Source: an uncultured Candidatus Saccharibacteria bacterium (lineage in GTDB: Bacteria > Patescibacteriota > Minisyncoccia > Sungbacterales > HO2-52-23). Taken from it: a stretch of DNA of 42,894 nucleotides. Every line of letters starts with the position of its first letter. Within the stretch, counting starts at the first letter, position 1. A program made the translations under genes and the position numbers. The stretch lies in assembly GCA_964373875.1 (NCBI GenBank), contig CAYJWH010000003.1, positions 1 through 42,894 of the forward strand. Direction: 5' to 3'. Shown in pieces: positions 6,640-38,758 of the stretch. The notes under the pieces were generated by a model. The model ran no database searches. It saw only the letters and a list, made by a program, of their open reading frames with translations, and was not told where the DNA came from.

Positions 6640-7344
6640 ATGCCAAGCAACTGGACAAAAGGATTTACGAAAGACACGCATCCGTCGATAATGAAAATTT
6701 CCGATACGATGCGAAGGAAGAAGTTAGATAACTTTGCGGAGTGGCGCGATAGAATGCGCGCTCTTGGAAAGATACAAACCGATTATCCGGAATTTAAGAA
6801 AGACGGAGACTTGGCTGAATTGATCGGAGTAATACTGGGAGATGGCCATATTGAAAGGTTCCCAAGGACAGAATCAGTTACTATTTCTTCTAATGCGAAA
6901 AATAAAGGATTTATTAACCGATACAGCAAGCTTTTGGAGACTATATTCAAGAAAAAACCGTATATTGCAAAAATGAGTGGTTCAAATTGCGTGCGTATTA
7001 GAATTTTTCAGAAGAATATAAGTAAAAGGTTTAATATCCCCTCCGGTGCAAGAAGATATAAAAAAATTTCAGTACCCCGCTGGATTTTTAAGGAGGAAGA
7101 GTATATAATAAGATATCTTCGGGGGCTTTATGAAGCAGAAGGCTCGTTTTGTATACATACGCCAACTTCTACCTATAAACTTTTTTTCAGCAATCGAAAT
7201 GAATCTATGCTCCGGAATGTTTTTCGGCTTATGAAACATTTGGGCTTTCATCCACATCAAAGCAAAAGCAATTATTCGATACAGGTTTCTAAACGTGAAG
7301 AGGTATACAATGCGGTTGAATTATTGAAGTTTAGAAATTATTGA
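6640..7344 (+). CDS. Double-motif LAGLIDADG homing endonuclease (free-standing)
   Basis: Motifs LIGVILGDGHI and YLRGLYEAEGSF; visibly more AT-rich than its neighbours. Confidence 0.8.
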   Translation: MPSNWTKGFTKDTHPSIMKISDTMRRKKLDNFAEWRDRMRALGKIQTDYPEFKKDGDLAELIGVILGDGHIERFPRTESVTISSNAKNKGFINRYSKLLETIFKKKPYIAKMSGSNCVRIRIFQKNISKRFNIPSGARRYKKISVPRWIFKEEEYIIRYLRGLYEAEGSFCIHTPTSTYKLFFSNRNESMLRNVFRLMKHLGFHPHQSKSNYSIQVSKREEVYNAVELLKFRNY

Positions 7345-7351: not shown

Positions 7352-7422
7352 TGCCGGGTAGTGTAGTGGTAGCACGCCGCGCTCTGGACGCGGAAACCGG
7401 GGTTCGAATCCCTGCCCGGCAG
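7352..7422 (+). tRNA. tRNA-Gln (anticodon CTG)
   Basis: Acceptor TGCCGGG/CCCGGCA (U1-A72), anticodon arm CCGCG-CTCTGGA-CGCGG, T arm CGGGG-TTCGAAT-CCCTG. Confidence 0.9.
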
Positions 7423-11819: not shown

Positions 11820-11925
11820 ACCCCGCTCTTACTCTACTACTAAATCGAAAATATAGAGTAAGTGGCAATATCAGATAAACTTCTAAGGTGTATATCATAA
11901 GTCAGCAGTAGAGTAAGGGCGGGGT
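11820..11925. repeat. Family-2 TIR element (106 bp)
   Basis: ACCCCGCTCTTACTCTACTAC ... GCAGTAGAGTAAGGGCGGGGT, about 21-bp inverted termini. Confidence 0.8.
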
Positions 11926-12855: not shown

Positions 12856-12955
12856 CCCCGTGCCACAACTAACGTGGATCTGGCATAAACTATAGATTAT
12901 AAGATAAATAACACAATCTAGTAAAAATTTATTTTACGAAGGTTGTGGCACAGGG
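12856..12955. repeat. Family-2-like TIR element (100 bp) ending 1 nt before the nifU ATG
   Basis: CCCCGTGCCACAAC ... GTTGTGGCACAGGG, 14-bp arms with 1 mismatch. Confidence 0.65.
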
Positions 12956-14819: not shown

Positions 14820-15413
14820 ATGTACGAACCAAAAAATTATGATCATTTGATAGGCACTCCCGGCTTTAGCGACCAGCTCCTTAAAAATCACTTTATCCTA
14901 TATCAGGGATATGTGAAAAATGTGAATACGATTTTACAGGAGCTCGAATCTATGTCCAAAGAAGGAAAAACAGGAACTCCCGCGTATGCCGAACTCCATA
15001 GAAGGTTTGGATGGGAATTTAACGGCATGCGCCTGCATGAATTGTATTTTGGCAACATGAAAAATGGGGGATCAAAACTCGATCCTGCCTCCAAACTGTG
15101 GGCGCAAATGGATAAAGATTTTGGCCCTAAACCTGCTTGGAGGAATGATTTTAAAGCGGTTGGCGCCATGCGCGGCATCGGCTGGGCTGTTTTATACTAT
15201 GATCCTGAAAGCAAAGAACTTTTTAACGTGTGGGTAAACGAGCATGACGTGGGGCATCTTGCCGGCGCCGTGCCATTGCTTGTCCTCGATATTTTTGAGC
15301 ATGCCTACGTTTTGGATTACGGGTTGAAACGCGCTGATTACATCGAGGCCTTTTTTGAAGCGATTGATTGGAGTATCGTGGAAACGAGGCTAAACCTCTA
15401 TAGCGGACTATAG
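14820..15413 (+). CDS. Fe/Mn-family superoxide dismutase; last 7 codons and the stop are supplied by REP sequence
   Basis: DIFEHAYVLDYG...DYIEAFF.AIDW C-terminal signature; NHF and RLHELYF His ligands. Confidence 0.8.
   Translation: MYEPKNYDHLIGTPGFSDQLLKNHFILYQGYVKNVNTILQELESMSKEGKTGTPAYAELHRRFGWEFNGMRLHELYFGNMKNGGSKLDPASKLWAQMDKDFGPKPAWRNDFKAVGAMRGIGWAVLYYDPESKELFNVWVNEHDVGHLAGAVPLLVLDIFEHAYVLDYGLKRADYIEAFFEAIDWSIVETRLNLYSGL
15382..15403 (-). repeat. REP copy (degenerate 5' arm), loop CTAAA
   Basis: aaacGAGG-CTAAA-CCTCTATAG; forms a doublet with 15408-15430. Confidence 0.7.
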
Positions 15414-15430
15414 AGGTTTAGCCTCTATAG
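15408..15430 (+). repeat. REP copy (perfect)
   Basis: CTATAGAGG-TTTAG-CCTCTATAG; contains the SOD stop TAG 15411-15413. Confidence 0.95.
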
Positions 15431-17832: not shown

Positions 17833-17939
17833 TAACCCCGCACCTTTCTTTGTGCAGAACTTCCCAAACAAGAAAATCGCTATAAAGGTTAAAGTCAAAA
17901 AATAAGATAAATCTTGCACAAAGAAAGGTGCGGGGTTAA
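17833..17939. repeat. Family-2 TIR element, copy C (107 bp)
   Basis: TTAACCCCGCACCTTTCTTTGTGCA ... TGCACAAAGAAAGGTGCGGGGTTAA, 25-bp arms; interior homologous to copy E. Confidence 0.9.
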
Positions 17940-18032: not shown

Positions 18033-20789
18033 ATGATGCCCCCCTACAATAATTTCACAATCAAAGCCCAAGAAGTTCTAAAAAAGGCCCATGACTTGGC
18101 CCTCGAGCGTTCGCATCACCAAATTGACGTATTGCACCTGCTGGCATCCCTTGCTCTTCAAGAAGAAGGAACGGTGGACGCTATGCTTGAGAAAGTTGAG
18201 GTGGAAATCTCTGCTCTGATTGATCGTATGCTGGAGATGCTTGATGCTCTGCCAAGGGGAGCTATGATTGCCACTCCCTTGGGCCAAGTTTATTTGACGC
18301 AGGATTTGGCTAAAGTTATTGAGCAGGCGCACAAAGAAGCGGCCCAACTCAAAGACGAATTTATTTCTACCGAGCATTTATTTTTGGCGCTGCTGGAAGT
18401 TCCCTCCAAAGCCAAAGATCTGCTGGAGCGGGAAGGGCTAAATAAAGAGACGGTCCTAAAGGCGCTTGCTGAGCTTCGCGGAGGACAGCGAATCACTGAT
18501 CCGGAACCGGAATCAAAATACAACGTGCTTGAAAAATACGCGCGTAATTTGACGCGCCTGGCCCGCCAGGAGAAACTTGATCCGGTCATCGGCCGGGAAA
18601 AAGAAATCCGTCGGGTAATGCAGGTTTTGTCGCGGCGAACCAAAAACAATCCGGTCCTTATCGGAGAAGCCGGCGTGGGAAAGACGGCGATTGCCGAAGG
18701 ACTTGCCCAGCGCATAATTTCTGGCGACATACCGGAAACTTTGAAAGAAAAAGAACTTATTTCCATTGATCTTGCCGCCATTGTCGCCGGAACTAAATAT
18801 AGAGGAGAGTTTGAAGACCGGCTTAAAGCGATTCTTCGCGAGATTGAACGCGCGCAGGGCAAATATATTATTTTTATAGACGAGCTGCACACTATTGTCG
18901 GCGCGGGAGCGGCCGAGGGAGCAATTGACGCCTCCAATATGTTAAAACCCGCTCTGTCCCGAGGGGAGCTTCACGCCATCGGAGCGACAACCCTCAAAGA
19001 ATATCAGCGGTATATTGAGCGTGATCCTGCCTTGGCCAGGCGTTTTCAGCCGGTATATGTAGAAGAGCCGAGTGTTGAAGACGCGGTATCAATCTTGCGC
19101 GGACTCAAACCAAAATACGAGGCGCATCATGGGGTGCGGATAACCGATTCAGCGCTTCTTGCTTCAGCCAACCTTTCCAGCAGATACATTGCCGACAGAT
19201 TTTTACCGGACAAAGCGGTTGATCTGATGGATGAGGCGGCATCTTCCCTGCGGCTCGAGATAGACAGTTTGCCCAAAGAACTTGACGAAACCCGCCGGAA
19301 AATTATGACGCTTGAAATCGAGCGGGAGGCTTTGAATCCCGTTAGAAGTCAGCCTCGACGTGATGTCGGGCCTGCCGATCCGATTAAATCGGATCGGACT
19401 TCTAATGGGATGAAAAAAGAAACCGATAGAAAATCTAAGGAAAGATCGAAAATCATTGAAAAAGAAATTACTTCGCTTCAAGCGAGTATAAAGGGTCTTG
19501 AGGAAGACTGGAAACTTGAAAAAGACACGATTAGCGAGGTACGGCTTCTTAAAAAAGAGCTTGATACTTTCCGTCAAGAATCCGATATTGCCGAACGTGC
19601 CGGAGAATTCGGCAAAGTTGCCGAGCTTCGTTACGGCCAAGTTCCGCAGGCGGAGCAAAAACTCCGAGAGGCGGAGAAACGCTTGACCCGCTTACAAAAC
19701 TCCCGCCATCTCTTGCGCGGAGAAGTTAGCGAAGAAGACATTGCTGTCGTAGTCGCCCGCTGGACCAATATACCGGTTACCAAGATTTTGGAATCCGAAG
19801 CTTCTCGTCTGATCAAAATGGAAGACGAACTTAAGGGGCGAGTTATCGGCCAAGACGAAGCTATCCAAAAAATTGCCAATGCCGTCAGGCGTTCCCGTGC
19901 CGGAATTTCCGAGGAGAACCGTCCGATTGGATCATTTATTTTTCTTGGACCCACAGGAGTGGGAAAGACTGAGCTTGCCAAAACCCTGGCCGAATTTCTG
20001 TTCAGCGACGAGAAAGCTTTAATCCGTGTCGACATGTCCGAATATATGGAGCGCCACACCGTATCCAAATTTATCGGGTCGCCTCCGGGATATGTCGGGT
20101 ATGAGGAAGGGGGACAGCTGACCGAGCTTATCAAGCACCGGCCTTACTCGGTGGTTCTCTTTGACGAGATTGAAAAAGCGCATCCGGAAGTTTTCAATGT
20201 GCTTTTGCAGATTCTTGATAACGGCCGTCTGACCGATGCCAAGGGGCGCGTGATCAATTTCAAAAACACCATCATCATCATGACTTCAAATATCGGAGGA
20301 GAGTACGCGGCTGAAATGGGGCGGCTTGGATTTGTGTCCGGGGACGAAGATACGCGCGAGTCCAAAGAAGGCGACATGAAAGACAAAATCCGCAAAGCGC
20401 TTGAACGGCATTTCCGACCGGAGTTTTTGAACCGGCTTGATGAGATAATTATTTTCTCCTCGCTCACCCCGGCAACCATTCAGAAAATCGTGGAGATCCA
20501 GCTAGATTTGGTAAAGGAGAGAATGGCCAAAAGAGAAATTGCCGTGGCGTTTACCCCCGATCTTAAAAATTTCATTGCCGAAAAAGGATATGACGCGCAA
20601 TATGGAGCGCGGCCGTTGAAGCGCGCCATTCAAACCCACCTTCTCGACCCCATGGCGCAAAAAATTATCTGCGGAGAAATCAAAAGCGGAGACTCGGTAT
20701 TGGTGGATGTGCGAAATGGAGAGCTGGTGTTTGAGAAAAACGTTAAGCGAGTTGGTACCAGATTGCGGACGGCCGCGTCGGTTAAGTAA
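18033..20789 (+). CDS. clpB: ClpB disaggregase (two AAA+ modules) with a 24-aa insertion in the M-domain
   Basis: GEAGVGKT and GPTGVGKT Walker A motifs, N-domain repeats, coiled-coil middle domain. Confidence 0.95.
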   Translation: MMPPYNNFTIKAQEVLKKAHDLALERSHHQIDVLHLLASLALQEEGTVDAMLEKVEVEISALIDRMLEMLDALPRGAMIATPLGQVYLTQDLAKVIEQAHKEAAQLKDEFISTEHLFLALLEVPSKAKDLLEREGLNKETVLKALAELRGGQRITDPEPESKYNVLEKYARNLTRLARQEKLDPVIGREKEIRRVMQVLSRRTKNNPVLIGEAGVGKTAIAEGLAQRIISGDIPETLKEKELISIDLAAIVAGTKYRGEFEDRLKAILREIERAQGKYIIFIDELHTIVGAGAAEGAIDASNMLKPALSRGELHAIGATTLKEYQRYIERDPALARRFQPVYVEEPSVEDAVSILRGLKPKYEAHHGVRITDSALLASANLSSRYIADRFLPDKAVDLMDEAASSLRLEIDSLPKELDETRRKIMTLEIEREALNPVRSQPRRDVGPADPIKSDRTSNGMKKETDRKSKERSKIIEKEITSLQASIKGLEEDWKLEKDTISEVRLLKKELDTFRQESDIAERAGEFGKVAELRYGQVPQAEQKLREAEKRLTRLQNSRHLLRGEVSEEDIAVVVARWTNIPVTKILESEASRLIKMEDELKGRVIGQDEAIQKIANAVRRSRAGISEENRPIGSFIFLGPTGVGKTELAKTLAEFLFSDEKALIRVDMSEYMERHTVSKFIGSPPGYVGYEEGGQLTELIKHRPYSVVLFDEIEKAHPEVFNVLLQILDNGRLTDAKGRVINFKNTIIIMTSNIGGEYAAEMGRLGFVSGDEDTRESKEGDMKDKIRKALERHFRPEFLNRLDEIIIFSSLTPATIQKIVEIQLDLVKERMAKREIAVAFTPDLKNFIAEKGYDAQYGARPLKRAIQTHLLDPMAQKIICGEIKSGDSVLVDVRNGELVFEKNVKRVGTRLRTAASVK
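19338..19409. repeat. 72-bp TIR palindromic element inserted in frame in clpB
   Basis: CCCGTTAGAAGTC ... GACTTCTAATGGG (12/13 complementary), inner GATCCGAT-taa-ATCGGATC; exactly 24 codons (PVRSQPRRDVGPADPIKSDRTSNG). Confidence 0.85.
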
Positions 20790-21285: not shown

Positions 21286-21458
21286 TTAACCCCGCATTTA
21301 TTTTGCGAATAGTTTGCTTGGCGAAGCGCTTCGCTTTGTAAAATTTGTTCTACTTATCCGCACCATTATTTGCTATTGTCTGGCAAAATAAGTGCGGGGT
21401 TATTTGTTTGTAACTAAATTTTGTTCACCTGCGAGCTCTCAAATTTAGACAAACAAAT
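21286..21458 (+). repeat. Family-2 composite element, copy D (TIR core 21286-21402 plus CTAAATTT hairpin)
   Basis: TTAACCCCGCATTTATTTTGC ... GCAAAATAAGTGCGGGGTTA; right flank TTTGTAACTAAATTTTGTTC...AAATTTAGACAAA matches that of copy B. Confidence 0.8.
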
Positions 21459-21756: not shown

Positions 21757-22122
21757 TCATTCTGTTTCGTTCGTAAGACCTTCTATGGTTTTCCACAACA
21801 TCGCAGCGATTTCTCCAGATAAATTTTGCGCTTTTTGGAACTTATCCGTGTCTTTAATCCAATTTCTTTTATCTGCGAATATTAATAAGTAGCAGCTTTC
21901 CTTTAACGATCCAAAAGAGGTTTCAAAGAAGTTTATTTTTACTAATTTTCTTTTTCTGGCAAATCCCTCTATGTAGTTGAGAATAGTGGAAATTGCCGCG
22001 CGCCGTAACTGTGATGTTGTGCCGTACAACTCCTCTTTAGGAAAGTCTTTTGTTAAGTCGTAGACGAGATGAACAAAATTATCCATCTTCTGCTTAAGTT
22101 TGTCGTGGAATCGATCTTCCAT
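21757..22122 (-). CDS. Four-helix-bundle protein (23S rRNA intervening-sequence protein family)
   Basis: VYDLTKDFPKEELYGTTSQLRRAAISTILNYIEGFARK pattern, recalled as typical of this family. Confidence 0.75.
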   Translation of the reverse strand: MEDRFHDKLKQKMDNFVHLVYDLTKDFPKEELYGTTSQLRRAAISTILNYIEGFARKRKLVKINFFETSFGSLKESCYLLIFADKRNWIKDTDKFQKAQNLSGEIAAMLWKTIEGLTNETE

Positions 22123-26347: not shown

Positions 26348-26370
26348 CTATAGAGGTTTAGCCTCTATAG
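26348..26370 (+). repeat. REP copy (perfect) spanning the RAYT stop codon
   Basis: CTATAGAGG-TTTAG-CCTCTATAG. Confidence 0.95.
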
Positions 26371-27042
26371 TGGATCTATGTATCCAGTGAGGAGGTTGAT
26401 ATCCTTCAAGGCCCATTCTTTGGTAAAGGATTCGTATTGAGATGAGTTGTATAGTTCACCCATCACCTCTTTATTGAGAATTAGCCCATAATTATTTTGC
26501 CCAATATAGTCAGAAAAACTTGACCACGGATAGCTTTTCACAAATTTATAGGACTCGTTCCAGTTTTTTACACCCTTTTCTTTCCAGTTAGGTTCTTTAA
26601 GTTCAAGGGGATTAAGATGAATGTATCGGGTAAGGTGAGTCAGATAGGTTTCTTCATCAATATGAATCGCCTTAAATGTACCTTGGAAGAGGGAACCGCT
26701 ACGTTGATATTTTGTATTGAAATACATAGTGTAGCCGGTACCCAGTTTTTGCATAAATTTTGAAATTCCGTTGTCTACCCTCTGCCGCAGTAATAGGTGA
26801 AAGTGATTAGACATAAGGCAAAAGCTCAAAATATCTACCATCATTTCCCGTTTCCTCTTCTCTATAGAGGCTAAACCTCTATAGTAGAACTGGGAATTTA
26901 GGAGCGGCTGGGTGTCGTTGCATGCATAGAGGAGATAGAGGAATCGTTGGTAGTCGTTCTTCTTGGTAAAAGTTATCCTCTTATCAACCCCGCGATTATA
27001 CACGTGGTAGTATTGCTCATTACTTAATTCAACTTTTCGCAT
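26365..27042 (-). CDS. REP-associated tyrosine transposase (RAYT; IS200-like Y1 HUH enzyme)
   Basis: YHVYNRG, HUH motif NHFHLLL, catalytic Tyr in TRYIHLNP; flanked by REPs; ATG at 27042 preferred over GTG 27051. Confidence 0.85.
   Translation of the reverse strand: MRKVELSNEQYYHVYNRGVDKRITFTKKNDYQRFLYLLYACNDTQPLLNSQFYYRGLASIEKRKREMMVDILSFCLMSNHFHLLLRQRVDNGISKFMQKLGTGYTMYFNTKYQRSGSLFQGTFKAIHIDEETYLTHLTRYIHLNPLELKEPNWKEKGVKNWNESYKFVKSYPWSSFSDYIGQNNYGLILNKEVMGELYNSSQYESFTKEWALKDINLLTGYIDPL
26862..26884 (-). repeat. REP copy (perfect) inside the RAYT coding sequence
   Basis: CTATAGAGG-CTAAA-CCTCTATAG; on the coding strand encodes YYRGLASI. Confidence 0.95.
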
Positions 27043-27050
27043 ACCTACCA

Positions 27051-27073
27051 CTATAGAGGTTTAGCCTCTATAG
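27051..27073 (+). repeat. REP copy (perfect) 8 nt upstream of the RAYT start
   Basis: CTATAGAGG-TTTAG-CCTCTATAG. Confidence 0.95.
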
Positions 27074-27092
27074 TCAAGTCTCTATAGTCAAG
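27066..27092 (+). repeat. Tandem duplication of the REP 3' arm plus flank (CTCTATAGTCAAG x2)
   Basis: Copies at 27066-27078 and 27080-27092. Confidence 0.8.
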
Positions 27093-27131: not shown

Positions 27132-27929
27132 ATGGACTCGCGAATGCCCAAAGAGATACAAAAAAAGGTATTTGAGTTGACTCTGGCCGTATACCGGGTG
27201 ACTGACTTTTTTCCGCAGGGGGAGGCGCTTCGCCGGCATATCCGAGAAAAAACCAATGATGTTTTTGGCATGTGCTCGGAATATTTTTTTTCTTTTGGGG
27301 ATGAAGAAGGCGTGGTCATGCCTGCCCCGCACTGCGGATACGCCGGTGCGGGAATCCTAGCCAAAATTGAGAGTTTAAAGGGTTATATGAATATCGCGAG
27401 ATCCTTGCGATATGTAAAGCCCATAAACCTTACGATTCTTGAGCGGGAATACGACTACATCGCCAAGTTTTTTTCTCAAGAACTTGGCAAAAGAGATGAC
27501 CTGCATACCCGCCAGAATTTTGCCGAGCAAAACTCAAGCGGGCTAGCCTGGGAAGAATTTTCTAAAAGACAGCGGGAAAATGAGCATGTGTCTGATACAA
27601 AAAGCGATGTGTCCGATAAAAATAATGTGGTGGTAAACCCCGTTAGAAAGAAACACGGGATGCCGTCGGCAGAAACCCGCTTTTCTAAAAAAGAGGAAGT
27701 AGGCGGAGAAAATCAACCGGCGTTTCTTTCTAACGTGGTAAATGAGCGCCAGCAGAAAATTGTTGAATATATACAAGAGACCTCGCAGGCCAAGATTAGC
27801 GACTTCTTTAACTCTTTTGCCGATATAAGTTCAAAAACTATTCAAAGAGATTTACAAGATTTAGTAGCTAAAAATATTCTTAAAAAGGAGGGTGAAAAAC
27901 GGTGGACAATATACTCTCTAGTAAATTAA
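27132..27929 (+). CDS. Four-helix-bundle-like N-terminal domain fused to a C-terminal DeoR-type HTH
   Basis: KKVFELTLAVYRVTDFFP ... ; C-terminal RQQKIVEYIQETSQAKISDF...SSKTIQRDLQDLV. Confidence 0.6.
   Translation: MDSRMPKEIQKKVFELTLAVYRVTDFFPQGEALRRHIREKTNDVFGMCSEYFFSFGDEEGVVMPAPHCGYAGAGILAKIESLKGYMNIARSLRYVKPINLTILEREYDYIAKFFSQELGKRDDLHTRQNFAEQNSSGLAWEEFSKRQRENEHVSDTKSDVSDKNNVVVNPVRKKHGMPSAETRFSKKEEVGGENQPAFLSNVVNERQQKIVEYIQETSQAKISDFFNSFADISSKTIQRDLQDLVAKNILKKEGEKRWTIYSLVN
27325..27352. repeat. Mini family-2 hairpin CCCCGCAC-13 nt-GTGCGGG inside CDS 27132-27929
   Basis: Same terminal octamers as the 100-117-bp elements; encodes part of PAPHCGYAGAG. Confidence 0.6.
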
Positions 27930-29315: not shown

Positions 29316-29420
29316 AAACCCCGCCCTTAACTTTGTGCAGCATTTCCCAAACAATAAAGTAGCTATAAAGATTTTGGTATAAAGCTGGTGCAGATATTGC
29401 ACAAGGTTAAGGGCGGGGTA
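29316..29420. repeat. Family-2 TIR element, copy E (105 bp)
   Basis: AACCCCGCCCTTAACTTTGTGCA ... TGCACAAGGTTAAGGGCGGGGT; interior TTCCCAAACAA.AAA...GCTATAAAG shared with copy C. Confidence 0.9.
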
Positions 29421-34254: not shown

Positions 34255-35037
34255 ATGATTTTGGATAAAAAGAAAATCTTTATTATTGTAATTATCGTTT
34301 TGTTGGGTCTCTCTATCTTTTTTAGAGACCGTATCTCTTCAATACTCACTTTTAGAAGCGAGCCGGAACGCGTTGTGAAATTGCCAGAGGACAAACCAAA
34401 AGAAGAAAAACTCGGAGAGGCGCTAATTTCTTCCTCCATGCCTGTTTATAAAGGAGCGGATCCCGCTCAAGTTCTTCCCGATCCGGAGGCGCTAAAGGGG
34501 CTCGACGATCAGCAGAAAGAAAATCTCTATTCGCGAATAAGGACCCACGCGGGCGAGGTCAAAGCGAATCCTGATTACTTTGCCGGATGGTTGGAGATAG
34601 GATTGCTTAAAAAAGTTATTGGAGACCTTGCCGGGGCAAGAGATGCGTGGGAATACGCAAGTTTGATTCGCCCCCAAAATTCCGTATCGTTTGCAAACCT
34701 TGGAGAACTATACTGGCGTTATCTTTCGGATTATCCGCGGTCCGAGCAGAATTTCCATAAAGCCCTCGAAAACGATCCAAAAGATGCGGATACTTATGTT
34801 TCCATTGCCGAGTTGTATCACTATTCTCTGCGGAACAAAGTCAACGAAGCCCCCGGGGTTCTACTAGACGGTCTTAAAGTTAATCCCGGAAACGATACCC
34901 TAACGCGCCGCCTCGCCTATCTTTATGAGCAAAGAGAAGAATACGCGTTAGCGCTTGAATGGTGGGAGAAGGTGCTGGCCGGAGATCCCGGCAATTTAGC
35001 TGTTGTGGCCACCATAGAAAAACTTAGGAACAGGTAA
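34255..35037 (+). CDS. Membrane-anchored TPR-repeat protein
   Basis: N-terminal TM; several 34-aa W/Y/A/P TPR-like units. Confidence 0.7.
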   Translation: MILDKKKIFIIVIIVLLGLSIFFRDRISSILTFRSEPERVVKLPEDKPKEEKLGEALISSSMPVYKGADPAQVLPDPEALKGLDDQQKENLYSRIRTHAGEVKANPDYFAGWLEIGLLKKVIGDLAGARDAWEYASLIRPQNSVSFANLGELYWRYLSDYPRSEQNFHKALENDPKDADTYVSIAELYHYSLRNKVNEAPGVLLDGLKVNPGNDTLTRRLAYLYEQREEYALALEWWEKVLAGDPGNLAVVATIEKLRNR

Positions 35038-35040
35038 TCA

Positions 35041-35063
35041 CTATAGAGGTTTAGCCTCTATAG
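35041..35063 (+). repeat. REP copy (perfect; stem extended to 13 bp by flanks ATCA/TGAT)
   Basis: CTATAGAGG-TTTAG-CCTCTATAG, 3 nt after the TPR gene stop. Confidence 0.95.
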
Positions 35064-35067
35064 TGAT

Positions 35068-36566: not shown

Positions 36567-38758
36567 TGCAAAAACCGAAAATTCTTATCTTTACCACCTC
36601 CTACCACCCATTTATAGGAGGTGCCGAAATAGCTGTCCAGGAAATTACCAGGCGCCTGAAAGAGCGCTTTGATTTTTATATTGTAACTTCCCGATTTCGC
36701 CGTGATCTGCCCAAGAGAGAAATAAGACCGGAGGGGATCGTCCTAAGAATAGGATTTGGCAATCGGCTGGATAAATATTTGCTTATCTTAGCCCCCTTTT
36801 ACTATAGAGGTTTAGCCTCTATAGTGCTGGGGGTGGATATCTCCCAGGCGTCGGTAGCCGCGGCAATTTACAAAATTCTCAATCCAAGAACTCCTTTTGT
36901 ATTAAATATCCAATTTGGCGAGAGCGAGGAGCGGCTTTCTTCCGGACGGGCAGGAATCATATCTGTTATGTTTCGTTTTATCCTCGGCCGGGCGGACTTT
37001 GTGACGGCCATCTCGAGCTATCTTCTAAATATCGCGAGAAGCTATGGATACAAAGGGCCGGCAGGGGCAGTACCTAATGGAGTAGATGTCTCAAAATTCC
37101 AAAACACAAAACACAAATCACAAACTAATCATAAAATAGTAATTACGACCGGGAGACTAGTCCGTAAAAACGGCGTCGATATTTTAATAAAGGCGATTGC
37201 CGAGATAAAAAAAAGTATCCCGGATGTTCGGCTGCATATAGTCGGCAATGGCCTGGAACGTAAGAATCTTGAGTTGCAAGTTTCAAATTACAAACTGCAA
37301 GAAAACGTAACGTTTTTAGGCAGTGTTTCCCATGAAGAAGTTCCACGGCACTTGCATGAGGCAGACCTCTTTGTCCGTCCTTCGCGCTCCGAAGGCATGG
37401 GCAACTCTTTTATAGAGGCCCTTGCGGCCGGTCTGCCAATAATCGGAACTCCGGTGGGCGGAATTTTAGATATAATTGAGGATGAAAAAACCGGGCTTTT
37501 TTGCAATCCCGAAGATCCGCGGGATTTGGCCGAGAAAATTACTCGGCTCCTGCAAGATAAAGCTCTCTCCTCCAATATAGCGGCTCAAGGCAAAAAAATG
37601 GTTGAGGATAGATTTTCTTGGGATAAAATTGCTGAAGCATACGCCGAGTTACTATCGAGGTTTAGCCTCTATAGTGAGGCTAAACCTCTGCGTATTTTGG
37701 TCGCGACTCCGTTGCTGCCGCCGCAGATAGGAGGCCCCGCTCAATATGCCAGACATTTATCCGAAGAATTTTTAAAACTTGAACAGAAAGTAAAAGTAAT
37801 TTCTTTTGGAAAATATCTGCGTTATCCAAGCGGAATCCGCCATCTGCTTTATTTATGGGCACTTGCCATACACGCGATAAAAAGCGATCTCATATTCGCG
37901 TTGGATTATACAAGCGTTGGGTTTCCGGCGGCTATAGTTTCTCTGATTTTTAGAAGGCCACTAGTGATTAGAGTTGAAGGCGATTTTCTTTGGGAAAGCT
38001 TTGTGGAGCGCGCGCGACAGGATATAATTCTAAGGGAGTTCTATAAAAATCCTCCCTCCCTCACGCCAAAAGAAAGGCTGGTTAAATGGCTTTCGGGTTG
38101 GGTGATGCGACGTGCCTCAAAACTCGTCTTTTCTTCCGAATGGAGGCGGTCTATGGTTGTTGATGCTTATAAGATTCCTTCAGAGAAAACTTTAATAATC
38201 CGCAACGTCTTTCCATATTCGGTAGCGCTAGAGCCTAGAGCCTATAGCCTAGAGCCCAGAATTATCCTTTGGGCTGGCCGGATGCTCTACCTTAAAAATC
38301 TCCAGCGCCTGATTAGGGCATTTGCAAACATGAACGTTTCATCTTACGAACTTCATCTCGTTGGGGAAGGACCGGAGAGAAAAAATCTTGAGCGCCTCAT
38401 AAACGAATATCACGCTGGGAGCCGCATAAAATTTTTTGATTCAATGGATCACGGGAAGCTCATGGACAAACTTGCTTCTTCAACGGCAGTTGTATTGCCG
38501 TCTCTTTCCGATGTCGGCCCAAATATAGTTACCGAAGCAATTAGCGCGGGCGTACCGGTAATCATGACTAAAGAATCCGGACATGCGGAGATTTTTCATC
38601 ACAAAGTTGAGTTGGTCAATCCGTTGGATGAGGGTGATTTGCGCCGGAAACTCGAAAAATTAATGAGAGAACCCGCAGAACGAGTTGTATCCGCATTCAC
38701 GATCCGACCGTGGGTTACTGCTGCCAAAGAGTGGATTAGTTTATTTAAGTCTCTATGA
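36566..38758 (+). CDS. Fused double GT4-family glycosyltransferase (two complete GT-B units joined through a REP doublet)
   Basis: Unit 1 has the EGMGNSFIEALAAGLPIIGT motif. Unit 2 begins RILVATPLLPPQIGGPAQ right after the REP doublet and has SDVGPNIVTEAISAGVPVI. Confidence 0.8.
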   Translation: MQKPKILIFTTSYHPFIGGAEIAVQEITRRLKERFDFYIVTSRFRRDLPKREIRPEGIVLRIGFGNRLDKYLLILAPFYYRGLASIVLGVDISQASVAAAIYKILNPRTPFVLNIQFGESEERLSSGRAGIISVMFRFILGRADFVTAISSYLLNIARSYGYKGPAGAVPNGVDVSKFQNTKHKSQTNHKIVITTGRLVRKNGVDILIKAIAEIKKSIPDVRLHIVGNGLERKNLELQVSNYKLQENVTFLGSVSHEEVPRHLHEADLFVRPSRSEGMGNSFIEALAAGLPIIGTPVGGILDIIEDEKTGLFCNPEDPRDLAEKITRLLQDKALSSNIAAQGKKMVEDRFSWDKIAEAYAELLSRFSLYSEAKPLRILVATPLLPPQIGGPAQYARHLSEEFLKLEQKVKVISFGKYLRYPSGIRHLLYLWALAIHAIKSDLIFALDYTSVGFPAAIVSLIFRRPLVIRVEGDFLWESFVERARQDIILREFYKNPPSLTPKERLVKWLSGWVMRRASKLVFSSEWRRSMVVDAYKIPSEKTLIIRNVFPYSVALEPRAYSLEPRIILWAGRMLYLKNLQRLIRAFANMNVSSYELHLVGEGPERKNLERLINEYHAGSRIKFFDSMDHGKLMDKLASSTAVVLPSLSDVGPNIVTEAISAGVPVIMTKESGHAEIFHHKVELVNPLDEGDLRRKLEKLMREPAERVVSAFTIRPWVTAAKEWISLFKSL
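36802..36824 (+). repeat. REP copy (perfect) inserted in frame in GT unit 1
   Basis: Codons 36800-36823 read YYRGLASI, identical to the peptide encoded by the REP inside the RAYT gene. Confidence 0.95.
37652..37674 (+). repeat. REP copy (1 mismatch: CTATCGAGG)
   Basis: At the junction of the two GT units. Confidence 0.9.
37672..37690 (-). repeat. Degenerate REP copy (GAGG-CTAAA-CCTCT) forming a doublet
   Basis: Shares TAG with the preceding copy; reads through as SEAKPL. Confidence 0.65.
38228..38255 (+). repeat. Tandem heptamer (CTAGAGC)x4, third unit CTATAGC
   Basis: Inside GT unit 2, encoding ALEPRAYSLEP. Confidence 0.85.

Follow-up and report, generated by a model that had tools for sequence, protein, structure and literature searches.

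Identification of a probable in-frame transposable element in clpB

The whole stretch of DNA analyzed here (referred to as the window) is a contig of 42,894 nucleotides from an uncultured Candidatus Saccharibacteria bacterium of the Sungbacterales lineage (assembly GCA_964373875.1, contig CAYJWH010000003.1), and contains a clpB gene, the middle domain (M-domain) of which is interrupted by a short palindromic segment. This segment is very probably a non-autonomous DNA transposon, namely a miniature inverted-repeat transposable element (MITE), inserted in frame and translated as a loop of 26 residues. It belongs to a new family of MITEs in bacteria of the candidate phyla radiation (CPR; Patescibacteria), with a behavior resembling that of the Rickettsia palindromic elements (RPEs). 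Its identity as a MITE was based on terminal inverted repeats (TIRs), a target-site duplication (TSD) of fixed length, small size, many dispersed copies, and the presence of empty sites. A terminal-inverted-repeat element in frame in the M-domain had previously been proposed from the DNA alone (the original prediction), and this was borne out by empty sister sites, the 4-bp TSD, and members of the same family in unrelated genes.

The letters of the segment originally delimited (72 nt or 24 codons; 19338-19409) were as described, including the 13-nt inverted termini CCCGTTAGAAGTC and GACTTCTAATGGG, which were complementary at 12 of 13 positions with one G:T. On the other hand, its size had been underestimated: the inverted repeat also included the next base at either end (T19337 and A19410), with complementarity at 13 of 14 positions between the arms TCCCGTTAGAAGTC and GACTTCTAATGGGA, and the element of 74 nt, together with the 4-nt TSD, accounted for 78 nt or 26 codons. 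The inner hairpin already reported was also present, while its length had been given too short (arms CCGATCCGATT and AATCGGATCGG: 11 nt, 100% complementary); another hairpin (hairpin 1) and the flanking TGAA repeat were newly found. The assignment of the terminus TTCTAATGG to the arm of a further hairpin family ("family 3") was not upheld, being a chance-level resemblance of 8-9 nt to other hairpins. No further full copy of the 72-mer was found in the window by an exact/2-mismatch search, blastn-short, or the covariance model described below, and a second family member was discovered through a match of 10 nt at 27639 (Table 1).

The host gene and empty sites in close relatives

The host protein matched ClpB from Thermus thermophilus (1qvr) with an E-value of 1e-275, and its nearest relatives were found in Candidatus Sungbacteria (CPR/Patescibacteria), with 67-89% identity among 120 orthologs. 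A scan of genome contigs with ClpB mostly yielded distant homologs (≤66% identity), and also recovered the locus L053. In the MAFFT alignment of the 120 Sungbacteria ClpBs, the baseline length was ~890 residues and approximately two-thirds had no extra residue at the insert position, so that the refuting observation named beforehand, a segment shared by every related ClpB and encoded by non-palindromic DNA, was not what we found. The insert segment was also missing from the ClpBs of T. thermophilus, M. tuberculosis, and E. coli, in which the alignments broke between query residues 434 and 460. The description of clpB as an essential gene in the original prediction was an assumption; in the absence of stress, many bacteria can do without ClpB.

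The extra DNA relative to the closest empty-site orthologs (L081 and L086) was 78 nt, corresponding to 26 codons (nt 19335-19412). In L081, which encodes a ClpB with 89% identity (P0002), GAGGCCTTG was directly followed by AAAAAAGAG (in the longer read, by AAAAAAGAGACA); in L086 (P0004; 86% identity), GCTCTC was followed by AAGAAAGAA (in the longer read, GAAGCTCTC by AAGAAAGAAACC). These empty sites held TGAA (L081) or the counterpart 4-mer once, as did the empty site of P0023 (L211; CTCTCAAAAAAG). Since TGAA stood on both sides of the 74-nt element and only once at the empty site of L081, a 4-bp TSD is indicated.

The MITE family: termini, copies, and target-site duplication

At least 153 family elements, at least 150 of which were unique, were found in metagenome contigs of Patescibacteria and other collected DNA; the scan of metagenome contigs with the pattern CCCGTTAGAA-N34-64-TTCTAACGGG gave at least 120 loci, mostly from groundwater and sediment. 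The copy counts given here and below refer to the matches listed. The elements were about 49-136 nt in length, had no coding capacity for a transposase, and carried TIRs of 14-16 nt with the termini (C/T)CCCGTTAGA...TCTAACGGG(G/A), or (C/T)CCCG...CGGG(G/A) from the alignment of flanks. The flanking 4-mers were identical in 89 of 152 copies (12.7 expected by permutation), with one mismatch in 27 more, and conformed to the consensus TNNA: TGAA (17), TAAA (17), TTTA (14), TTCA (13), TCAA (6), TTGA (5), and TTAA (3). Within the window, at least seven CCCCG-terminated elements were found, five of them with identical 4-bp flanks, and only two copies (those in the ClpB and DeoR-like genes) shared the same TIR. 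The DeoR-like insert lay in the linker of the protein and added NPVRKKHGMPSAETRFSKKEEVGGENQPAFLSNVV (NPVRKKHG...AFLSNVV), whereas the homolog in L083 had no insert.

A near-twin of the 72-mer (L086, 2393-2464), sharing the termini and, with compensatory changes, the first hairpin, was located in a Sod_Fe (superoxide dismutase; SOD) gene and read in the same frame as the ClpB copy (RPVRSQPRRDVG...GRTSNGV; RPVRSQPRRDVGAAAVPPAGRTSNGV). The ClpB site of the L086 genome was empty, and the SOD gene of the window itself (14820-15413) had no insert.

A blastn search of a plasmid database with the element gave no match. The TIR pattern was also seen five times (L212-L216) in four viral-classified IMG/VR contigs (UViG_3300009431_000021, 3300031952_000413, 3300033489_000655, and 3300038429_000794); either these are misfiled CPR contigs or phages carry the elements.

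Secondary structure and covariation

As RNA, the 72-mer folded into a Y-shaped three-way junction with a minimum free energy of -41.7 kcal/mol (z = -7.95; equaled by none of 200 shuffles), and its complement was nearly as stable; the 74-mer as DNA gave -26.6 kcal/mol (z = -8.16). This architecture (outer stem, AG, hairpin 1, CUGCCG, hairpin 2, and CGGAC) defined a Y-type subfamily, of which 16 copies were aligned. RNAalifold predicted 27 pairs, 16 of which showed compensatory double changes, and in the helix of hairpin 1 such changes were found at all six pairs among the 16 members. Paired cells accounted for 95.4%, against 82.9% in shuffles and 33-47% with slid partners, and the covariation score (0.425 versus 0.189) was reached by none of 500 shuffles; these values carry a mild bias, the Y-type seed set having been picked partly by eye. 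A covariance model (R1) recovered ~19 Y-type members above 55 bits, while the other family members matched through their termini only. The covariation could have arisen from a folded DNA required in transposition, a role of the intergenic copies at the RNA level, or intrastrand templated correction of quasi-palindromes.

Copies inside genes and their probable translation

A copy was regarded as genic when it lay inside an open reading frame (ORF) of at least 200 amino acids with at least 25 amino acids on each side. Thirty-one of the 153 copies were genic, and all of them had a length divisible by three (3n) and a stop-free frame, although this complete agreement is partly a consequence of requiring an intact ORF. 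Two frames were used, NPVR...SNGV (21 copies) and TPLE...LTGF (10 copies), while the third contains TAG. In 85 clearly intergenic copies, on the other hand, the length modulo three was uniform (29/23/33). The Y-type copies were found in both orientations relative to the host genes (approximately eight sense and seven antisense by our own tally). Host genes confirmed by Pfam encode GyrA, UvrC, TrmD, CinA, glycogen debranching enzyme (GDE), polyprenyl synthase, an XerC/D-like integrase, HhH-GPD glycosylase, an epimerase, and a HAD hydrolase. In a Paceibacterota-type gyrA (L107, 4162-4227), for example, a MITE peptide of 24 amino acids (GPVRSRPARGTATTAEGRSASNGT) was placed in frame between ...ERKA and GQFNI..., and was missing in all seven closest homologs. 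Separately, three GyrA homologs from Patescibacteria (P0150, P0167, and P0222) had lengths of 1212-1245 amino acids and contained intein or LAGLIDADG domains.

The very stable fold and the genuine covariation in both inner hairpins, together with the status of clpB as a heat-shock gene, are compatible with a palindrome acting at the RNA level, as an intron-like or self-cleaving element removed from the mRNA, or as a regulatory or thermosensing hairpin in the clpB message. We consider this highly improbable. No Rfam family matched, even at E-values of up to 10: the hits in Rfam 15 were at chance level (E = 4.5-5.4, far under the gathering scores), and the whole window gave two tRNAs only. A 3n length and stop-free frame would be needless in a segment removed from RNA, and no gene split by an out-of-frame copy was found: virtual excision of 57 copies with a non-3n length and of 27 intergenic copies with a 3n length did not restore a long ORF in any case, and intron-like use was ruled out by this test. 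Furthermore, genic copies are inserted in either orientation, the reading frame is kept in copies that have decayed, the majority of copies lie between genes, and the genes hosting a copy are not related to one another. Read-through translation is thus favored over an intron-like or mRNA-specific role by the 3n stop-free genic copies, the null result of excision, the in-frame decay, the two orientations, and the Rfam result.

Position of the insert in ClpB and recurrent use of the site

The structure of ClpB was predicted by AlphaFold2 with a 40-sequence alignment, and the mean predicted local distance difference test (pLDDT) score was moderate (67). A helix (residues 415-434) was followed by a coil (435-460; pLDDT <50 over residues 436-464) and a long helix (461-522), so that the insert is predicted to form a disordered loop exactly at the turn between helices L1 and L2, the motif 1 tip of the M-domain. 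The inserted peptide, which is Pro/Arg/Gly-rich, had been expected to be unlike a coiled coil, in agreement with this non-helical model. By phmmer alignment, the insertion falls between L429 and M430 of the E. coli protein, and K462 and E463 of the window protein align with K431 and E432. In E. coli ClpB, K431 and E432 mediate repressive contacts of the M-domain; a crosslink forms between K431C and S499C, the E432A mutant is repressed, and loss of motif 1 by deletion results in hyperactivity and toxicity (PMC4023160). Since it adjoins the equivalents of these residues, the putative surface loop would occupy a functionally sensitive spot.

Some insert of 8-49 amino acids was present at the L1/L2 turn, or within a few residues of it, in 39 of the 120 Sungbacteria ClpBs, and the sequence classes were unrelated between clades. 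The neighbor-joining tree placed the NPVR-class inserts in three clades (P0001/P0002, P0005/P0023, and P0025 and its neighbors), all of which had a sister with an empty site. Either the site was hit repeatedly or elements were lost precisely, and parsimony favors neither; the count of gains versus losses was tied in the clade of P0005, P0023, P0009, and P0045. The decayed 3' part of the P0009 insert was shared with P0045. The insert in L082 (P0005) was intact (z = -10.5), and a mini-hairpin with the family termini was nested in it; the same-site inserts in L083 and L087 had lost the fold (z = -1.0 and -0.4), but were still in frame and began with NPV(R/K)S. The mini-hairpin in L082 (3528-3558; 29 nt; CCCCGTTAGAGAT-AAA-ATCTCTAACGGGG), located inside the second hairpin of the full-length element, looks like an element-in-element insertion. 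Inserts of other classes in L085, L088, and L209 were weakly palindromic (z of about -1.4 to -2.2), and those in L085, L088, L209, and L210 were not assigned to any MITE family (the fold was measured for the first three). Such other classes were xGE(S/G/P)..., AGRS...GGEG, and Ala/Asn/Gly-rich (P0003, P0016/17/20, P0028, P0039, P0045, P0046, and P0055-60, among others).

These observations bear on two further explanations. A lineage-specific ClpB loop selected to tune M-domain regulation, in which the palindromic DNA is incidental or was produced by templated mutation of a quasi-palindrome instead of mobile insertion, would fit the clustering of inserts at the exact turn and next to the regulatory residues. 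It is nevertheless very unlikely: the closest relative has no insert, the 4-bp TSD is present, a 72-mer with this architecture and peptide was found in the SOD of another genome (with at least 150 copies elsewhere), and different clades have unrelated insert sequences at this position. Once inserted, the ClpB loop may have been favored or disfavored by selection. Palindromes can cause mis-assembly, and the window derives from one metagenome contig only, and yet in-frame inserts at the same site were found in independent assemblies of other samples (L082, L083/L084, L087, and L209), the reading frame was exactly preserved, and the TSD was clean; an artefact or chimera of assembly is therefore hardly conceivable. 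The ClpB copy is most likely a recent, nearly intact MITE insertion translated as a disordered loop.

Mobilization and the question of the transposase

In the proposed route, a staggered-cut (DDE-type) transposase acting in trans would have inserted the 74-nt element at a TGAA of clpB with duplication of the 4-mer. The element plus TSD amounts to 78 nt and, in a phase that avoids the single stop-containing frame, would leave the gene open, so that transcription and translation would produce a Pro/Arg/Gly-rich loop of 26 residues bulging from the L1/L2 turn at the motif 1 tip. This turn appears to tolerate added residues (about one-third of Sungbacteria ClpBs have an insert), and the loop may be neutral or nearly neutral for ClpB, while insertions elsewhere or out of phase would presumably have been purged by selection. 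If the palindrome later decays with the frame kept, the segment would evolve as an ordinary loop-coding sequence.

Several points weigh against this reading. When ~1.4 Mb of collected loci was searched for paired termini separated by 300-4000 bp, no autonomous element or transposase with the family TIRs was found, and all such pairs were separate MITEs; mobilization in trans is consequently deduced from the TIR and TSD. The 42.9-kb window holds a single Y-type copy according to the covariance model. The strong covariation of the inner hairpins is not required of a simple "junk" MITE, and some role of the folded DNA or RNA may have been overlooked. In addition, we infer from sequence features that the element is translated and not spliced out, and, next to the equivalents of K431 and E432, neutrality of the loop is not assured.

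No DDE transposase was found among the 30 ORFs of the window that were scanned against Pfam, the sole transposase being an IS200-like Y1 ORF (26365-27051 on the minus strand; Y1_Tnp, E = 3e-11). Hairpins of the type CTATAGAGG-TTTAG-CCTCTATAG flank this ORF (26857-26885 and 27050-27078) and recur intergenically at 15386-15425, 35037-35067, and 37657-37688; the ORF and its hairpins look like a set of the repetitive extragenic palindrome/REP-associated tyrosine transposase (REP/RAYT) type, distinct from the CCCCG/TNNA MITEs. The proximity of this ORF (7 kb from the element), and hairpins that keep structure but not sequence, as in end recognition by single-stranded DNA transposases, may suggest that the element itself is a REP-like or IS200/IS605-type palindrome moved as single-stranded DNA by such a Y1 (RAYT-like) enzyme. 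This is very improbable, since a variable 4-bp TNNA duplication flanked 89 of the 152 copies, whereas, to our knowledge, Y1 transposition (IS200/IS605 and REP/RAYT) makes no TSD, and the hairpins around the Y1_Tnp gene belong to a different family, which scored 19 bits with the model of the element.

A more far-reaching combination may also be formulated: the CCCCG/TNNA elements would be footprints of a prokaryotic piggyBac/IS1380-like transposase active across Patescibacteria and capable of seamless excision, the Y-shaped covarying fold would be needed for mobility or for a role at the RNA level, occupation of the ClpB motif 1 tip would be selected as retuning the repressive head-to-tail contact, and reduced CPR genomes would regularly gain new protein loops from MITEs. 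Seamless excision, if true, would explain the empty-site sisters nested among occupied ClpBs. Taken as a whole, this combination is unlikely.

Relationship to known palindromic elements

RPEs are short palindromic repeats found in frame in unrelated genes and translated (Ogata et al. 2000 Science 290:347; 2002 Genome Res 12:808; summary in PMC10969869). As far as these accounts describe them, they share with the new family the in-frame palindromes in unrelated housekeeping genes, extra peptides at places that the protein fold can accommodate (translation being presumed for the new family), decay of the copies over time, and occurrence of one family in both coding and non-coding DNA. They differ in host (Alphaproteobacteria, compared with Patescibacteria/CPR here) and, within the same accounts, in a greater length (about 100-150 nt, compared with about 55-110 nt here). 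In the new family, by contrast, clear TIRs of 14-16 nt and a 4-bp TNNA TSD were found, and the ends of the peptide are fixed by the TIR as NPVR...SNGV or TPLE...LTGF. We know of no description of RPEs with TIRs or a 4-bp TSD. The two are set side by side as elements that work alike, an analogy independent of any sequence relationship, and the present element is not classed as an RPE, its host being Candidatus Sungbacteria as judged from the ClpB relatives.

Bacterial MITEs such as Correia, ERIC, Nezha, and BOX/RUP are likewise small, with TIRs and TSD, no transposase gene, and many dispersed copies, and show presence/absence polymorphism between relatives and occasional in-frame intragenic copies (PMC10969869). 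The new family differs from these in its termini (CCCCGTTAGA) and host group, in a Y-shaped subfamily with covarying inner hairpins, and in the high share of copies in conserved genes (clearly so for 31 of the 153). The literature searched contained no account of MITEs or of in-frame palindromes from Patescibacteria/CPR.

The 4-bp T..A duplication and the CC(C)...GG(G) termini recall piggyBac, which duplicates TTAA (rarely TAAA, TCAA, and others) and has CCC...GGG termini, and its prokaryotic relative IS1380, used as the outgroup in the same study (PMC10813416). The degenerate TNNA target of the new family differs from the strict TTAA, and kinship with IS1380/piggyBac is offered as a lead and not as a claim of membership, a transposase linked to the TIRs not having been found. 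The piggyBac TIR, which we take to be CCCTAGAAAGATA, resembles CCCCGTTAGAAAGAAA at 27638.

Elements of the REP/RAYT and IS200/IS605 groups are also structured, mostly intergenic palindromes, with the Y1 gene and its own hairpins as an example in the window, and REP/RAYT and IS200/IS605-derived palindromes carry a conserved GTAG-type head. The new family differs in its TSD and in TIRs starting with CCCCG, and membership in these groups was ruled out by the 4-bp TSD and the different hairpins flanking Y1_Tnp.

In-frame "protein-coding palindromes" have so far been treated as a peculiarity of Rickettsia, and are now seen with TIR, TSD, and empty sites in CPR/Patescibacteria with small genomes, where core genes are affected (gyrA, uvrC, trmD, sodA, and clpB). 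The finding derives its weight from the range of housekeeping genes affected, from the covariation of the structure, and from the location of the insert at the ClpB regulatory tip. The TNNA duplication, the family termini, and the two peptide types provide an annotation signature for loops derived from mobile elements, and part of the heterogeneity in the length of CPR proteins would be explained. The occupied ClpBs are naturally occurring mutants with an insertion in the M-domain regulatory tip, and may be used in tests of Hsp70-dependent activation.

Features of the window

The coordinates of the elements and of their host gene are summarized in Table 1.

Table 1. Features of the clpB element and related elements in the window
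Feature	Position	Strand	Basis and remarks
clpB ORF, host of the insertion	18033..20789	+	918 aa; ORF list and match to T. thermophilus ClpB (1qvr)
74-nt MITE (TCCCG...CGGGA), Y-type subfamily	19337..19410	+	TIR 14/16; identical flanking TGAA; covariance model R1, 60.3 bits, E = 2e-13
Left TSD copy, TGAA	19333..19336	+	Sequence; single TGAA at the empty site of L081 (CCTTGAAAAAAG)
Right TSD copy, TGAA	19411..19414	+	As for the left copy
Left TIR, TCCCGTTAGAAGTC	19337..19350	+	Inverted repeat; termini conserved across at least 150 unique family members
Right TIR, GACTTCTAATGGGA	19397..19410	+	One G:T mismatch against the left arm
Inner hairpin 1, CTCGAC-GTGAT-GTCGGG	19354..19370	+	Minimum free energy structure; compensatory changes
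Inner hairpin 2, CCGATCCGAT-TAA-ATCGGATCGG	19375..19397	+	Fold; covariation in helices 3 and 4
26 extra codons (N435-M460), NPVRSQPRRDVGPADPIKSDRTSNGM	19335..19412	+	Alignment of 120 orthologs; comparison with empty-site DNA
Second CCCCGTTAGA-type member, 101 nt	27638..27738	+	TSD TAAA (27634-37 and 27739-42); in frame in DeoR-like helix-turn-helix gene (27132-27929)
Related CCCCG-terminated MITE, 100 nt	17836..17935	.	TIR 16/16; TSD TTAA; intergenic, ~100 nt upstream of clpB
MITE-like elements, 100-110 nt, CCCCG(C/T)... termini	11821-11924, 12856-12955, 17836-17935, 21290-21399, 29319-29418		Flanking 4-bp repeats mostly intact (TATG, TTAA, TAAA)

The element at 12856-12955 overlaps the annotated start region of a NifU-like ORF. 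An ORF for a 23S rRNA-intervening-sequence protein (bAvd-like four-helix bundle; 21757-22122, minus strand) is located between clpB and the gene for a 1216-aa protein with an LTD domain. A free-standing ORF resembling a LAGLIDADG_3 homing endonuclease (6640-7344, plus strand) ends 8 nt before the start of a tRNA (7352-7422). Among the ClpB homologs, P0014 carries an internal duplication of 38 amino acids in the first nucleotide-binding domain, NBD1 (EAHHGIRITD...KAIDLVD).

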